The notes: generated by a model from the sequence alone, not told the origin. A stretch of DNA of 64,000 bases from Lautropia sp. (GCA_030528325.1 JAUMZD010000016.1:1-64000), one strand, 5' to 3'; positions 1,199-6,610 are shown, counted from the stretch's first letter. Program-made: numbers and translations.

Positions 1199-2098
1199 AT
1201 GGTGTTGAAATGGTGTGGATACGGCGTTCTTGTGGTTCTTCTGGCGCTGAGTGGCGTGACAGGGGAAGCTTGGGCCGATGATCTGCCCCTCACGGTGGAA
1301 GATCTGATCACGGACAAGGGAAAGTTCAAGCTTGATTTGTCTTTTGCCTATGCCAATCGTGATCATCAGGGGATCTCGACTGGGGAGCCAGTATTGGTTC
1401 AGACCGGAGCCACGTCGTTCGTGACTGTGCCCGGCAGGGTGGGAGAAAGCACGGGCAATACGGATGGCTATGTGCCTACGATCGGCTTGCGTTATGGCCT
1501 GAGCGCAAAGACTGAGGTCTATGCGCGCGCTAGCATGATGGCGAGTAGTGAGCGCGGGCAGGATGTAAACGGCGTTAGGGGCAGCAGTACTTCACAGTTC
1601 TCCGATTTCTGGACAGGTATCAACTACCAGTTCAAGGAAGATGACGACACGCCAGCCGTTCTGGGTTTTGCTGAGTTGGCGCTGAGTGAGCGTCGACGTG
1701 AAGACAATGTTCGGTTCAAGTCGGCGGTGCTTGGGGTTACGGCCTACAAGGCGATTGATCCCGTTGTCTTCTCTGTCACGAGTAGCTACCGCTTCGGTCG
1801 CTCTTCTCTGGTAGGCAGTGAAGCCTTCAAGCCGGGCAGTATGCTGCAGATCAATCCATCGGTCGCTCTGGCGGTCAATGACCGTGTCACGTTGAGCACA
1901 GGCGTGCAATGGCTGCGTCATTCGGCCGATGTCATCGAGGGGCAGCGTCAGAGCTACAGCCGTACCGGAACGGATCTGGTTCTGGGATTAGGCTATGGCT
2001 TTGGTCGTGGAAACACACTCCATGTCAGCTTCCGGCAAAAAGCGTCTGGACAGAGTGGCGCGGAGCTGAGAGCGGGTTGGCTATACACCTTCAGATAA
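1199..2098 (+). CDS. Predicted outer-membrane beta-barrel protein (about 300 aa, Sec signal peptide)
   Basis: Start moved to the ATG at 1199 (MVLKWCGYGVLVVLLALSGVTGEAWA signal peptide). Hydrophilic/hydrophobic residues alternate and the C-terminal strand ends ...AGWLYTF(R). A hairpin terminator follows. Confidence 0.45.
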   Translation: MVLKWCGYGVLVVLLALSGVTGEAWADDLPLTVEDLITDKGKFKLDLSFAYANRDHQGISTGEPVLVQTGATSFVTVPGRVGESTGNTDGYVPTIGLRYGLSAKTEVYARASMMASSERGQDVNGVRGSSTSQFSDFWTGINYQFKEDDDTPAVLGFAELALSERRREDNVRFKSAVLGVTAYKAIDPVVFSVTSSYRFGRSSLVGSEAFKPGSMLQINPSVALAVNDRVTLSTGVQWLRHSADVIEGQRQSYSRTGTDLVLGLGYGFGRGNTLHVSFRQKASGQSGAELRAGWLYTFR

Positions 2099-2099
2099 A

Positions 2100-2125
2100 A
2101 AATCCCTCCCGATAGGGAGGGTTGA
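2100..2125 (+). terminator. Rho-independent terminator-like hairpin
   Basis: tccctccc-gata-gggaggg followed by tt, immediately after the stop codon at 2096..2098. Confidence 0.5.
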
Positions 2126-2240
2126 GTGGGCTCGGCCCATTCAGAAGATGCTGGCAGTGTGGCAGCACGGCCAGCGAGTGCCTCGGGAGTTTGTCGAGGC
2201 TTGTCGTTGTTTGTTGGGGTACCCCCAAGGAGTTTAAATC

Positions 2241-2690
2241 ATGAAAGCAAAAAACGTCGTTATCGCTTTGGCCGCAACCGGTCTGATCTCATCGCATGCT
2301 TTTGCAGAGGAAGCAGCCATTGAAGGTACATCAGCCCCCCAGGTGCAGGCGGCGAGCTTTACGGAAGCAGATGCCTCGACTCTGTTCGAGAAGACTGGAG
2401 GGACGATGGAGTTGGCTTCTCTCTCTTCTGCCGAGATGAAGGAGACGGAGGGTGCGTATCTGGCGAACGCGGCAGGTGCTGCTATTGGTCTTGCTGGATA
2501 CGGTGCCTTTTGTACGATCGGCACCGGGTCATGCAGTGCCCTTGGAGCTATTTCAGCTGCAGCTATGGGCGCTATTAGCCCGGTTCGCGCGGTGACGCAG
2601 GCTGAGACTGCTGCAAGGGCAATTTGGGGTTTTAATGCATCGGTCGCAAATGGAACTGTCCTCGGCGTTGGCTCCCACTATGGTCACTGA
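2241..2690 (+). CDS. Secreted glycine/alanine-rich peptide precursor: Sec signal peptide, spacer, an internal double-glycine-type leader (MELASLSSAEMKETEGA), then a Gly-rich two-Cys core
   Basis: AAGGAG lies 8 nt upstream of the ATG. MKAKNVVIALAATGLISSHAFA is a classic signal peptide. Residues 56-72 match the LSxxELxxIxG(G/A) leader consensus. The core AAGAAIGLAGYGAFCTIGTGSCSALGAISAAAMGAIS resembles class II microcins. Confidence 0.55.
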   Translation: MKAKNVVIALAATGLISSHAFAEEAAIEGTSAPQVQAASFTEADASTLFEKTGGTMELASLSSAEMKETEGAYLANAAGAAIGLAGYGAFCTIGTGSCSALGAISAAAMGAISPVRAVTQAETAARAIWGFNASVANGTVLGVGSHYGH

Positions 2691-2800
2691 TTTCGTGCCA
2701 GCGCAGGGACAGCAGACTCTGTTTTGAATAAAAAATTTTCCTTAAGGAGAGGCTAAAGAGCCTCTCCCCAGACAAGGGCAATTTCTTGAGGGTTGACTTG

Positions 2801-3025
2801 ATGTACTTTCTTGCGTTCATACTGGGGGCTTCGATCGGTTTTGGTGTCTTGTATCAAAAGAGTTCAGCTCGAGGGTATTTAAAAACGCTAGTATTCTTGT
2901 TTAATATAATTTCCATTGTTTCTTATGCATCTTATTACAATATTTCAGAGTGGAAAGATTTGATTTTGTCTTTGATTTCAGTGTTTTCTGCTTATTTTTT
3001 TGTTGTCAAAATTTTTGGCAAGTGA
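2801..3025 (+). CDS. Small AT-rich two-TM membrane protein (immunity-protein-like)
   Basis: ATG at 2801 with GAGG 9 nt upstream (the track used an upstream TTG). Sequence MYFLAFILGASIGFGVLY...SYASYY...VFSAYFFVVKIFGK. Local GC content is far below the genome background. Confidence 0.4.
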   Translation: MYFLAFILGASIGFGVLYQKSSARGYLKTLVFLFNIISIVSYASYYNISEWKDLILSLISVFSAYFFVVKIFGK

Positions 3026-3112
3026 TAGGAGTAAAGGTTAGGATTTGCTGTAAATAAATGACAGCCCGTTTGGGTTCGTGTTGTTTTTTGAAGTTGAGTC
3101 CCTGAGGTTCTT

Positions 3113-3700
3113 ATGACCATTGTTTCTTCATCGCTGTCCGCGTTCATGCAGCGCGAGCAGCCGTTTTCAAAGTTTTCGTTTCCCCGCTGGCAATCGGTGC
3201 TGGCCATCACGCTGCTTGGAGTGCTGACGGGGCTTGATCCGCGTGTGTCGGCACCGCAGCCTGGCATGCCCGAAATGAGCGTGATGTCTCCGGGTCTTGC
3301 CATCGGATTTTCGCTGGTGATGGTCTGGGCATGTTTCCTTGTTTGTGTCGGCGTGGTGCGTTGGTGGGTGAAACGGAACGGTCGTTGGGATGGTGATGGC
3401 GACATCTTCAATCTGCTCGCGGCCGTGTGGTTGGTGCCGGATGCGCTGGCGGCGGGATTGACGATCCTTGGTCTGCCGCCGTTGGTGGGCATGGCGCTGT
3501 GGCTATATTCGGTGTGGGTAGCTGGTCATGCGCTGGATAGCGCTATTCCTCGGGTCTCCCTGGGGTATGCGATTTTGGGGGTGCTGATCAGTGTTGTATT
3601 GATGAGTCTCATCATGCTTGTGGCTTCGGTTGGTATGGGGCTGTTTCTGATGGGAGGAGTGCCTCCCGCGCCACCAGCTGCACCCTCCGGAGGTGGTTGA
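3113..3700 (+). CDS. Polytopic inner-membrane protein (Yip1-like, about 5 TM), translationally coupled to the downstream C39 gene
   Basis: Multiple hydrophobic segments and a Pro/Ala-rich C-terminus. Its stop TGA overlaps the ATG of the next gene (TGAATG at 3698..3703). Confidence 0.5.
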   Translation: MTIVSSSLSAFMQREQPFSKFSFPRWQSVLAITLLGVLTGLDPRVSAPQPGMPEMSVMSPGLAIGFSLVMVWACFLVCVGVVRWWVKRNGRWDGDGDIFNLLAAVWLVPDALAAGLTILGLPPLVGMALWLYSVWVAGHALDSAIPRVSLGYAILGVLISVVLMSLIMLVASVGMGLFLMGGVPPAPPAAPSGGG

Positions 3701-4624
3701 ATGAAGGGGAATCCTCTTTTGTGTTACGCCGTTCTTGCCGGAGAGGTGTCGATTGTATGGGTGATGGCTGGCGCCATGATGTCGCTGGCGCATGCCACGG
3801 AGCATCCGATAAAGGACGTGCCTGACACGCTGCACACGTCGTCAGCCGAATCGAAGATTGCCGGACAGAATGGTATGGGAGAAAAACCGGAGACGGGATC
3901 CAGGCATGAAGATGTCGGCCTTCAGAAAGAGGCCCGCCAGAAAGCGGAGGGCCAGCGTGCGAGGGAAGGAGGGCTCACCGACAACGGGGAAGGGGCGAAC
4001 AGGAAGTCTGGCGACCAGGGCGCATTGCTGTTGACGCAGAGTGCCGCAGGGCAGGTGAAGGTGAAAAGCTGGAAGACCTTGCGCGATGATGGCATCGTCA
4101 AACAGGATTTGGACTATTCCTGCGGCGCGGCTTCGGCGGCGACTCTGCTAAACAGCTTCTATGGTCAGAACGTTTCGGAGAAGCAGTTTCTGAAGACCAT
4201 GGGGGAGGAGGACGGCATGGCCAGTTTTGAAGACATGGCGCGAGCGATGCCTGCGTTCGGTTTCAAGGCAAGGGGGTTTGCAGCCAGTTGGGATCAGTTG
4301 ATCAAGCTGAAGCTTCCGGTCATTGTCTATGTCAAGTATCGCAAAGACGATCACTTCAGTGTGTTGCGAGGCATCAGTGGCAATACGGTCTGGCTTGCCG
4401 ATCCCAGCCTGGGCAATCGAACCTTCAGCAAGTCGCAGTTTCTTCAGATGTGGCAGACGCGGGATGACAAGAAAGCCCCAGAGCTGGCGGGCAAATTTCT
4501 GGCTGTGTTGCCAGCAAAGGAGGATATCGACCGCATGGACGCTTATTTTTCAAAAGCTCCTCGTCGTCAAAGCGGTGTCGCCGTTGAGCAGCTCAGCTTT
4601 CGGGGGGCTGCAGGGATACTCTGA
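3701..4624 (+). CDS. Free-standing peptidase C39 (bacteriocin-processing-type papain-like Cys protease) with an N-terminal signal peptide or anchor; not fused to an ABC transporter
   Basis: VKQDLDYSCGAASAATLLNSF (catalytic Cys context QxDxxDCGxA), DHFSVLRG (His), ADPSLGN (Asp). The N-terminus MKGNPLLCYAVLAGEVSIVWVMAGAMMSLAHA is hydrophobic. Confidence 0.7.
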   Translation: MKGNPLLCYAVLAGEVSIVWVMAGAMMSLAHATEHPIKDVPDTLHTSSAESKIAGQNGMGEKPETGSRHEDVGLQKEARQKAEGQRAREGGLTDNGEGANRKSGDQGALLLTQSAAGQVKVKSWKTLRDDGIVKQDLDYSCGAASAATLLNSFYGQNVSEKQFLKTMGEEDGMASFEDMARAMPAFGFKARGFAASWDQLIKLKLPVIVYVKYRKDDHFSVLRGISGNTVWLADPSLGNRTFSKSQFLQMWQTRDDKKAPELAGKFLAVLPAKEDIDRMDAYFSKAPRRQSGVAVEQLSFRGAAGIL

Positions 4625-4807: not shown

Positions 4808-5527
4808 TCAGGTGTCAGGTGATAAAGGCGTTGCCATGCCGGAGGCACGGCGAGGGTCTGAGACAAGGGCCCGCGTAATGCAATCGCTCAGTTCAGGATC
4901 CATCTGCATCCGTTCAAGGCACTGTTTCAGCCAGTTGAGGTCGCGGATCATGCCGCAGGCATCGTGATAGGCTCGGGCGACATGCTGGCCGTAGGCTGAT
5001 TCGGCTTTTTCCCATGCCTGCGAAGGAATCTCTCCCCAGTGGGCGATCATCATGGCCAGGTCGATGATGTCCCGGTTCAATGTGGATCGATCCTGACCGC
5101 GATCGGCATTGGCCAGCAGCTTTTCAGCGTACATGTCTGCCCTGCAGAGCACCGGCACGCTGAGAACCTCATCAACGCTGCCTCCGATTCTGATTCTCCC
5201 TTCGTTGACGATCTCAAGCTTGATCGGAACGCCATCGATATCGATGACGGTGCGGATGCCATAGCGATCGGCCCGGATCTCGCGTCGGTATGACAGCGGG
5301 CTTTTGAGCAGGCGCCCGAGGCTTTGCTGGGTGATGGTGTTTCTCAGCAATCGGTAGCCTTCGGTCGACGCACACAGAAAATCGATATCGCGTGATTCCC
5401 TGTACTCCGACAGGGCCATGACGATGGCGGTCCCGCCGCCAAAATAGCAGTCCGCTTCCTGAAGAAAGGCCGTGTCGAAGGCAGCCAGCACACGAGCAAT
5501 GCGTTGGTGATGGAGTCTTTCAAACAT
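4808..5527 (-). CDS. Nucleotidyltransferase of the AbiEii/DUF1814 family (type IV TA-like toxin)
   Basis: YFGGGTAIVMALSEYRESRDIDFL matches the Pol-beta-type hG[GS]...DhD signature. Its start overlaps the stop of the upstream small gene by 8 nt. Confidence 0.65.
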   Translation of the reverse strand: MFERLHHQRIARVLAAFDTAFLQEADCYFGGGTAIVMALSEYRESRDIDFLCASTEGYRLLRNTITQQSLGRLLKSPLSYRREIRADRYGIRTVIDIDGVPIKLEIVNEGRIRIGGSVDEVLSVPVLCRADMYAEKLLANADRGQDRSTLNRDIIDLAMMIAHWGEIPSQAWEKAESAYGQHVARAYHDACGMIRDLNWLKQCLERMQMDPELSDCITRALVSDPRRASGMATPLSPDT

Positions 5528-5759
5528 TCATCACCCCATGGCCATATTCCTGCGTCAGTCGCTCGATCAGTGCCTTTTCCCGTGCCTCCAGTTGCGCCTG
5601 ATCGACATGCCGCCAGTTGGCTTCATAGAGTGCAAAGGCTTCGGCTTCGTCGATCCATTCATCCGGATCCCGGTTCCAGGCCAACAGGCAAAGCTGGGGG
5701 TAATCGCTCAGGTGCAAGGACATGGGTCTGGGAGCCTGGTGCGGTATGTGGATTGTCAT
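5520..5759 (-). CDS. Small conserved protein (79 aa), putative partner or antitoxin of the NTase; three paralogous copies in this window
   Basis: MTIHIPHQAPRPMSLHLSDYPQLCLLAWNRDPDEWIDEAEAFALYEANWRHVD...; overlaps the NTase start. Confidence 0.5.
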   Translation of the reverse strand: MTIHIPHQAPRPMSLHLSDYPQLCLLAWNRDPDEWIDEAEAFALYEANWRHVDQAQLEAREKALIERLTQEYGHGVMNV

Positions 5760-6063
5760 GACAGGCTTTGTTCCCAGGGATCGAGGAGGGTCAGTCCCAG
5801 CAGTGCAAAATCCCGGGTGTTCCGGGTTGCTACAGCCGCATCGTGTACAAGCGCAATGGCTGCGATCATGGCATCAGACTGACTGATGGGTCTCCCTTGC
5901 GCTTTCCGTGCGGCAACATTTCCGTGCCTCTCATCAGTTCTGCCCGGGTGATGTTGGTCGTATACAGTGATTGTCTCGGGTGCAAGCCGAACCACGAAAG
6001 GACATTCGTGTCAGGATTGGCGCGCAGTATCTCCGAAATGACGTTCGTGTCCAGGATGATCAT
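5756..6063 (-). pseudogene. vapC: vapC (PIN-domain toxin) split by a frameshift
   Basis: The N-terminal frame 5866..6063 reads MIILDTNVISEILRANPDTNVLSWF...ITRAELMRG. The C-terminal frame 5756..5995 reads ...GRPISQSDAMIAAIALVHDAAVATRNTRDFALLG...DPW. Together they make a full-length FitB/VapC. Confidence 0.55.
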
Positions 6064-6321: not shown

Positions 6322-6567
6322 TCAATGTGCTGTCAATGACTGCATCGTAGGTACTGACGTCATTTGTGTCAATTGGCTGGTGACGGGCCGACGTGGAGGC
6401 CGCCAGTCGGGCAGAATCCCCTGTAGCTCTCCCTGATGTCCCGGATCGACATGTCGCCAGTTGGCTTCATAAAGTGCAAAGGCTTCGGCCTCGTCGATCC
6501 ATCCATCCGGATCCCGGTTCCAGGCCAGCAGGCAAAGCTGGGGATAATCGCTCAGGTGCAGTGGCAT
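6322..6567 (-). CDS. Third paralog of the small NTase-partner protein (N-terminal 45 aa conserved, C-terminus diverged)
   Basis: Internal Met at 6567: MPLHLSDYPQLCLLAWNRDPDGWIDEAEAFALYEANWRHVD.... The track ORF 6322..6897 is a read-through extension. Confidence 0.4.
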   Translation of the reverse strand: MPLHLSDYPQLCLLAWNRDPDGWIDEAEAFALYEANWRHVDPGHQGELQGILPDWRPPRRPVTSQLTQMTSVPTMQSLTAH

Positions 6568-6610
6568 GGTGGGGTTCAGCGCGCTCTCGGGGAGCGCCCC
6601 TTTCTCGATC

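Follow-up and report, generated by a model that had tools for sequence, protein, structure and literature searches.

We examined positions 1199-4624 of a 64,000-nucleotide stretch of Lautropia sp. DNA (GCA_030528325.1 JAUMZD010000016.1:1-64000, hereafter the window), where five co-directional open reading frames (ORFs) on the plus strand, all full length, form an operon. In 5' to 3' order they encode an outer-membrane beta-barrel, a precursor peptide, an AT-rich small protein, a protein with five transmembrane segments (5-TM protein), and a C39 cysteine peptidase. A preliminary description of this region had read it as a microcin-like system in which a peptide is exported by Sec, trimmed in the periplasm by the C39 enzyme, and then passed through the outer membrane.

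The peptide gene (2241-2690) has a Shine-Dalgarno sequence (AAGGAG) 8 nt upstream and encodes 149 residues that divide into a Sec signal, an acidic pro-region, and a core. Residues 1-22 (2241-2306; MKAKNVVIALAATGLISSHAFA) have the n/h/c arrangement of a Sec signal. The pro-region, or leader (residues 23-72; 2307-2456), has an isoelectric point (pI) of 4.05 and a charge of -8, and terminates in LSSAEMKETEGA. Its last 17 residues (56-72; 2406-2456), MELASLSSAEMKETEGA, fit the double-glycine leader consensus LSxxELxxIxGG at positions -12, -11, -8, -7, -4, -2, and -1, with M for L at -7, T for I at -4, and A for G at -1 (i.e., L S x x E M x x T x G A). Cleavage is predicted after Ala72, between nucleotides 2456 and 2457, and would leave a Gly/Ala-rich core of 77 residues (73-149; 2457-2687; 7314 Da, pI 8.05) with the N-terminus YLANAAG and two cysteines (Cys91 and Cys98). 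Signal, 17-residue leader with its Gly-Ala site, and two-cysteine core are thus all present as the preliminary description had them.

The distal gene (3701-4624) encodes a secreted C39 peptidase of 307 residues. Residues 132-252 (4094-4456) match Pfam Peptidase_C39 (PF03412) at E 2.4e-22, their 79.6 bits exceeding the gathering threshold of 22, and the four catalytic residues, oxyanion Gln135 plus Cys141, His218, and Asp234 (codons at 4103, 4121, 4352, and 4400), are invariant among 20 homologues, which upholds the claim of a free-standing C39 enzyme with an intact triad. Their spacing (Q-6-C and H-16-D) is canonical and is that of ComA. The N-terminus is hydrophobic (residues ~1-32, a signal peptide or anchor) and the homologues carry plain signal peptides, as expected if the enzyme has its own export signal. 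Profile matches in the PDB are to the peptidase domains of PCAT1, LahT-type enzymes, and ComA. Within NCBIfam, the best matches are the stand-alone periplasmic C39 peptidases FilB and FapD, both below cut-off: the enzyme scores 79.9 bits against the FapD equivalog NF058616 (cut-off 330) and 90 bits against the FilB pilus-system model NF050078 (cut-off 475). More than 1,100 relatives occur in the protein collection, mostly "predicted double-glycine peptidases" of ~220-240 aa from Betaproteobacteria. Two further features of the protein lie outside the Pfam domain. A charged, low-complexity linker of ~80 residues, rich in Glu, Lys, Gly, and Gln (residues ~33-110; 3797-4030), is absent from most homologues, and a C-terminal tail (YFSKAPRRQS, in the region of residues 283-298; 4547-4590) includes F283, P287, R289, and Q290, which are conserved in all homologues.

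The first gene (1199-2098) encodes a 299-residue homologue of NapF and HmcD. It begins with a signal peptide (approximately residues 1-26; MVLKWCGYGVLVVLLALSGVTGEAWA), followed ahead of the first strand by a nearly invariant motif, DLPLTVEDLITDKGK, that is possibly a plug or gate. From about residue 43, the protein forms a barrel of 12 strands, which agrees with its earlier assignment to the outer membrane. A PDB sequence search at E ≤ 1 found no match, and fold comparison alone was informative: the barrel model superposes on FapF, its best structural match, with 18% identity in the structural alignment. The N-terminal periplasmic coiled-coil domain of FapF is lacking, and a 299-residue protein has no room for it.

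Two membrane proteins are encoded between the peptide and the peptidase. The small ORF ends at 3025 and starts either at TTG 2786 (79 aa) or, more likely, at ATG 2801 (74 aa), which has GAGGG 8 nt upstream. The earlier call of an AT-rich small TM gene holds, given a GC content of 0.34-0.37 (vs. ~0.56 in the surroundings) and two to three hydrophobic segments. The 195-residue inner-membrane protein that follows (3113-3700), which we treat as an accessory component, is modeled by AlphaFold as five helices at low confidence (predicted local distance difference test score 57.6) and has no match in Pfam, NCBIfam, PHROG, or PADLOC. Its TGA stop (3698-3700) directly abuts the ATG of the C39 gene at 3701, in keeping with the translational coupling that had been noted. 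Neither Pfam nor NCBIfam, even at E ≤ 1-10, assigned the peptide, the small ORF, or the 5-TM protein to a family. PADLOC and PHROGs gave no relevant match for the operon, so that it belongs to no known defence system and to no phage module. As had been stated for the locus, there is no gene for an ATP-binding cassette (ABC) transporter or membrane fusion protein (MFP); no ORF in the 64-kb window combines a Walker A motif with LSGGQ.

When one genome per species was scanned, 80 loci were retrieved, and 57 of these were informative in that the sequence 5' of the C39 gene extended over 3.5 kb or more. The hosts are Burkholderiales, Rhodocyclales, Neisseria, Kingella, several Gammaproteobacteria, Helicobacter metagenome-assembled genomes (MAGs), and one Desulfobacteraceae MAG. 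The window itself belongs to a Lautropia sp. MAG, and its C39, barrel, and 5-TM proteins each have a 100%-identical counterpart among NCBI entries for Lautropia MAGs. Among the informative loci, a barrel is present in 52, at least one leader-bearing peptide in 50, and both together in 48. The preliminary description had suggested looking for peptide, C39, and barrel triads, and 45 of the 57 have all three on a single strand, with the barrel first, the peptide(s) next, and the C39 last. Nine encode two to four peptides that share a leader but differ in their cores. Only two of the ~80 related loci contain an ABC-exporter-type ORF, in both cases on the opposite strand.

The peptides have a nearly invariant leader and diverse cores. 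An iterated hidden Markov model (HMM) of the leader matched 84 ORFs in the surveyed loci; the window peptide scores E 6e-21 and is the only such ORF in the 64 kb. Across 82 unique precursors from ~70 genomes, L-12, M-7, and G-2 are found in all 82, S-11 and T-4 in 81, E-8 in 80, and A-1 in 68 (Glu occupies -1 in 10 others), and the +1 residue is mostly Trp or Phe. The match in the window is thus not a chance resemblance. By a heuristic test, a signal-peptide-like N-terminus precedes the cleavage motif by ~48 residues in 74 of 76 complete precursors. Pairwise comparison aligns the leaders in 89% of pairs and the cores in only 15%. A Sulfuritalea contig carries the same operon, with a peptide that resembles that of the window only up to "...EMKETDGA". 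An exhaustive phmmer search with just residues 1-75 as the query retrieved 65 distinct clusters at 50% identity, nearly all of 70-190 aa and matching at the N-terminus. Overall, the cores are 17.5% Gly, 13.5% Ala, and 1.5% Asp plus Glu, and are also Asn-rich. Their median charge is +3.75 (94% are cationic), vs. -5.4 for the pro-regions (all are acidic), a split that fits the anionic propiece and cationic mature peptide typical of antimicrobial peptide precursors. A ComC-like quorum-sensing pheromone was considered and rejected, given that the cores are 40-120 residues long, hypervariable, and paired with small membrane ORFs.

These small membrane ORFs provide a further line of evidence. Downstream of 44 of the 82 peptides, at a distance of 350 nt or less, lies a small ORF with two or more TM-like segments (the background is 2.4% of all small ORFs), and across distant hosts such ORFs co-vary with the core family: for instance, a core that ends in YRGW has a "...SLIVEIAGMLGGM...KKWSK..." protein behind it, and one that ends in WRR a "MFELIGGIVEALTGYL..." protein. 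In the Lautropia locus closest to that of the window, a 56%-identical homologue of the small ORF follows an 83%-identical core. Covariation of this kind is the signature expected if toxin/immunity cassettes are swapped behind a constant export signal, and such exchange would explain the GC trough at the window's small ORF, which is a candidate immunity protein for the adjacent core. The 5-TM protein behaves differently. By tblastn, homologues that are 45-84% identical lie immediately upstream of the C39 gene in 17 of the 57 loci (~30%), whatever the core type (a word-indexed search gave only 12 relatives). A core-specific immunity role was considered for it as well and is unlikely, because the protein is conserved regardless of core type, at 45-50% identity in loci with unrelated cores.

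One core family departs from the membrane-ORF pattern. Cores of the type AHHSAHH...GRLPHIQ...RIPLP (L002:4646-6001, L009:3252-5939, L033, and L035) are followed by a soluble ORF of ~87 aa that reads ...YQIE...DD...VRV.G.IDDGGW..., and a long ORF in the Sulfuritalea locus (5111-6001) fuses this soluble domain to a 5-TM protein. Such an arrangement gives a hint of a toxin that acts in the cytoplasm and is countered by a soluble immunity protein.

The mechanistic paradigm for the window system is Fap, in which an active periplasmic C39 peptidase (FapD) is required for secretion via FapF, a 12-stranded barrel (Rouse et al. 2017, Nat Commun, PMC5557850). The likeness of the barrels is at the fold level only, and the window lacks the FapF-type coiled-coil trimerization domain, amyloid repeat subunits, and FapA/B/C/E. 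Fap proteins have no canonical leader, whereas the motif in the window substrate is explicit. It could be argued from this paradigm that the Gly/Ala-rich cores are amyloid or surface-fibre subunits and that the C39 enzyme is a secretion-activating protease. FapF is the barrel's top structural match, FapD and the "pilus system" peptidase FilB are the models near which the C39 enzyme scores in NCBIfam, the cores are rich in Gly, Ala, and Asn, and an Acinetobacter Gly/Ala-rich class II microcin, albeit from a canonical peptidase-containing ABC transporter (PCAT) system unlike that of the window, builds amyloid in biofilm (PMC13188072). However, the cores have no imperfect-repeat architecture, the operon contains no repeat-containing amyloid subunit genes of the fapB/C/E type and nothing FapA-like, and the barrel, at 299 aa in total, is without the periplasmic coiled coil. 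The scores of 80 vs. 330 and 90 vs. 475 bits are far under the FapD and FilB family cut-offs. In addition, unrelated core families, some clearly not Gly-rich, use the same leader, and core-specific small membrane ORFs have no role in a fibre system. We therefore judge a fibre or matrix function to be quite improbable.

The Fap precedent also raises the question of what the peptidase cuts. For FapD, the catalytic requirement was shown, the substrate is unknown, and cleavage of FapF itself has been proposed (PMC5557850). By analogy, the window C39 might act on another component, such as the barrel or its conserved N-terminal segment (which could be a regulated plug), or might serve as a non-catalytic chaperone, with the leader being a targeting or chaperone-binding signal that is retained or is removed by a different protease. 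Yet the leader agrees with the pattern canonically recognized by C39 enzymes at each position that determines specificity (G-2 occurs in all 82 precursors), all four catalytic residues are retained, and no GG or GA motif of such context was noticed in the barrel. We give this option little credence, and predict that the window C39 cleaves the precursor after Gly-Gly or, as here, Gly-Ala.

The closest characterized relative is the nap island of Neisseria, with an outer-membrane channel, NapF, and a C39 peptidase, NapP (Poncin et al. 2025, PLoS Biol, PMC11798529). Both are orthologous to the window proteins: NapP is 59% identical to the window C39 over 184 residues (E 2e-77), and NapF is 39% identical to the barrel over 290 residues (E 3e-67) and has the N-terminal motif DLPLT(V/I)ED in common with it. 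The authors' model, with periplasmic cleavage by NapP and export via NapF, together with the Fap precedent of 2017 and the homologous haemocin locus discussed below, means that the remark in the preliminary description that this route was not known as a described bacteriocin pathway is out of date. The authors did not identify the inner-membrane passage, for which they suggested the holin-like NapH, and they set the cleavage sites at internal GG motifs of NapA, NapB, and NapC (PMC11798529). The combination of Sec signal and conserved leader in Nap peptides was not recognized in that paper, and Sec would supply the inner-membrane step missing from its model. The long NapB of Neisseria lactamica, which reads MKKQITAAMMLSMITPAMANG...MQLAELSQKEMKETEGEW..., has the same signal-plus-leader architecture as the window precursor; its signal peptide is accompanied by MQLAELSQKEMKETEGE, a leader of the same family, and the alignment of the two peptides is confined to the leader. 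The window otherwise differs from nap in having another core, another small ORF, and an additional 5-TM protein, and in lacking NapR, NapH, and NapI.

The nap island has been tied experimentally to stationary-phase autolysis and erythrocyte lysis (PMC11798529), and this raises the main rival to our interpretation, which concerns function rather than mechanism: the same machinery could deliver peptides whose targets are the producer's own population (programmed autolysis) or host cells, and not competitors. The closeness of NapP and NapF to the window proteins favors this possibility, as does the finding that synthetic Nap peptides did not kill competitors (PMC11798529); Lautropia is also host-associated, as is Neisseria. 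On the other hand, the peptides tested were set by the internal GG sites and excluded the leader-bearing long NapB. Published NapA is 92% identical to L070 4422-4709, within the N. lactamica nap island (L070:3096-6561, next to hisS), and published NapC is 85% identical to L064 5467-5760 in Neisseria flavescens (L064:4952-5760). NapA and NapC thus lie immediately 3' of leader-bearing peptides, in the position taken elsewhere by small multi-TM immunity-like ORFs, and gonococcal NapB corresponds to the C-terminal end of the long leader-bearing NapB. It follows that the cleavage sites that define the synthetic Nap peptides may not be natural. Multi-peptide arrays with cognate small membrane ORFs fit toxin/immunity pairs better, and so does homology to a locus annotated as encoding hemocin structural and immunity proteins (see below). 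On balance, a role in autolysis or cytolysis seems unlikely, although less so than the other, lesser rivals.

Haemocin is a bacteriocin with bactericidal activity toward other Haemophilus. Its locus, hmcDCBAI, known from Haemophilus influenzae and from Avibacterium paragallinarum plasmid p250 (NC_005245), is a distant relative of the window operon: HmcD is 24% identical to the barrel (tblastn E 1e-7, phmmer 4.5e-11), and the stand-alone C39 of the locus matches that of the window at 2e-22 in phmmer. HmcA resembles the window precursor in architecture, with a signal peptide followed by ...LSQKEMSEVKGG. The p250 record is annotated with a "hemocin structural protein," a "hemocin immunity protein," HmcD, and a C39 peptidase. 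The gene order there (barrel, C39, ATPase, peptide, immunity) differs from that of the window, and haemocin alone has an extra AAA ATPase (HmcB), a GG rather than GA site, and a Cys-rich core. In p250 (L086:1482-4290), the AAA ATPase gene lies between those for the C39 and the peptide.

How far the window peptide is a class II microcin, as first proposed, depends on which part of the definition is considered. With class II microcins and other PCAT-processed peptides (MccV with CvaAB-TolC, ComA, PCAT1) it shares the leader consensus LSxxE(L/M)xx(I/T)xG(G/A), the C39 enzyme shares the PCAT-type fold with Gln/Cys/His/Asp, and the small, Gly-rich, unmodified core of less than 10 kDa with an adjoining small candidate immunity gene is microcin-like. 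The leader consensus thus stands, whereas an N-terminal leader free of a Sec signal, with a cognate ABC-C39 exporter and MFP nearby, is not what we find. The window leader lies behind a Sec signal and spacer, and the C39 is separate and secreted, unlike in PCAT systems. Given that no ABC transporter, MFP, or TolC dependence is encoded, cleavage would be periplasmic and uncoupled from ATP-driven export. The gene does have the properties of a Nap/haemocin-type substrate, lying beside a barrel and a C39 gene and encoding a signal peptide plus an LSxxEMxxTxG(A/G/E) leader. The operon is therefore a member of the existing, thinly characterized Nap/haemocin family rather than a new kind of system.

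In our view, the operon probably serves the two-step, Sec-dependent export of a bacteriocin-like peptide and belongs to one family with NapF/NapP, HmcD/HmcC being distant relatives. The 149-residue precursor would cross the inner membrane via Sec and shed its 22-residue signal peptide, leaving a periplasmic pro-peptide that retains the 50-residue acidic pro-region with its double-glycine-type recognition helix at the end. The pro-region probably keeps the hydrophobic, slightly cationic core inactive while presenting this amphipathic helix. The secreted C39 would then read the leader and cut after Gly71-Ala72, freeing the 77-residue core (7.3 kDa, possibly with one disulfide), which would exit via the 12-stranded FapF-like barrel. 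We infer this outward direction, as well as the placing of cleavage before translocation. The AT-rich small membrane protein would shield the producer from a presumed antibacterial activity of the core, and the 5-TM protein, coupled to the peptidase in translation, may be an optional helper. Such a route best accounts for the synteny, the invariant leader and variable cores, the signal peptides, the FapF-like barrel, the cognate small ORFs, and the lack of ABC and MFP genes, and the comparison of loci thereby supports the two-step scheme of the preliminary description.

Several points weigh against this interpretation. With a charge of +0.9, the core of the window peptide is no more than weakly cationic, and none of the bacteriocin families of Pfam and NCBIfam matches it. 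The synthetic Nap peptides, the only tested relative, had no antibacterial activity and promoted autolysis and haemolysis (PMC11798529). The proposed route leaves the role of the 5-TM protein unexplained, and an energy source for outer-membrane passage is not evident at the operon. As the window C39 has a long N-terminus with a Glu in it, this segment could be a membrane anchor instead of a cleaved signal. Lastly, the support for the locus and for its close relatives with an intact leader peptide is purely computational.

More tentatively, and at somewhat less than even odds in our estimation, the window may exemplify a large export pathway, not yet recognized as a class, that occurs in Beta-, Gamma-, and some Epsilon/Deltaproteobacteria and is defined by a bipartite Sec plus double-glycine address, the second part of which a dedicated C39 enzyme reads in the periplasm, with cleavage coupled to passage through a FapF-like barrel. 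The searchable literature yielded no description of the breadth of the family or of this bipartite leader. If the generalization is true, the pathway would be an ATP-independent counterpart of PCAT and type I secretion systems for polymorphic toxin peptides, and the nap island would be a degraded member in which NapA and NapC are immunity-type membrane proteins and gonococcal NapB is the 3' remnant of a leader-bearing toxin.

The Sec-dependent route would be a way for Gram-negative bacteria to dispense with an ABC transporter in the export of double-glycine bacteriocins. Stand-alone periplasmic C39 peptidases are common and their substrates essentially unknown; this family offers an explicit, near-invariant recognition sequence, and with small diffusible substrates, both C39 specificity and the coupling of cleavage to outer-membrane passage become directly testable. 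The survey also brings to light dozens of cationic core peptides, unrelated to one another, with cognate immunity candidates, including some from human-associated Neisseria, Kingella, Lautropia, and Helicobacter, and the conserved leader could be used as a search handle in genome mining and as a secretion tag.

The operon lies in an accessory region, with an IS3-family transposase fragment at the left edge and toxin-antitoxin genes nearby. A 274-nt direct repeat (393-666 and 5458-5731, 93% identical) brackets the operon together with an AbiEii-like gene (4808-5527), an arrangement consistent with horizontal mobility of the cassette. In such surroundings, the locus might be a decaying, non-functional remnant, and related loci do decay (a truncated barrel and a peptide without signal peptide in the other Lautropia locus, truncated or split loci in gonococci). 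However, the five window ORFs are full length, and the signal peptides, catalytic residues, ribosome-binding sites, and coupled stop/start are all intact, so that we regard decay as very improbable here, the least probable of the rivals considered.

In the other Lautropia locus (Lautropia sp. S30M_Sa_16, L014:4117-5078), which among the relatives is nearest to that of the window, similarity to the barrel ends at residue 209 and gives way directly to a peptide ORF without a signal peptide, either because of a deletion in a decaying locus or as an assembly artefact. A search of plasmid DNA with the operon gave as its sole match a gonococcal chromosome mislabelled as a plasmid, and this pointed to Nap without the help of annotation. 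In the Neisseria gonorrhoeae 2022NG-0076 chromosome, deposited as a "plasmid" (L084:6947-8395, L001:4902-5510), a second barrel occurs at ~172 kb together with a leader peptide of 179 aa whose C-terminal domain is long and basic, and a C39 without most of its signal peptide occurs at ~1305 kb. Beside each part lies the same transposase-like remnant, and a rearrangement that divided a single locus is thereby suggested. In some hosts, plasmids carry the system, namely, A. paragallinarum p250 and Acinetobacter sp. plasmid p12SAAs474; on the latter, three peptides, identical in their leaders but not in their cores, are arranged around the barrel (L085:5012-9108).

A third, partial copy of the window repeat (138 nt) is found at 6432-6569, and all three copies code for versions of a small protein, "...YPQLCLLAWNRDPDGWIDEAEAF.LYEANWRHVD...", which is probably the partner of the nucleotidyltransferase toxin. 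Within the operon, two perfect, GC-rich hairpins were noted, one 3' of the barrel gene (2104-2121; CCCTCCC-GATA-GGGAGGG) and one 3' of the peptide gene (2746-2767; GGAGAGGC-TAAAGA-GCCTCTCC). Neither is followed by a T-run on the plus strand, and they may be transcript-stabilizing or attenuating elements that fix the ratio of peptide to machinery.

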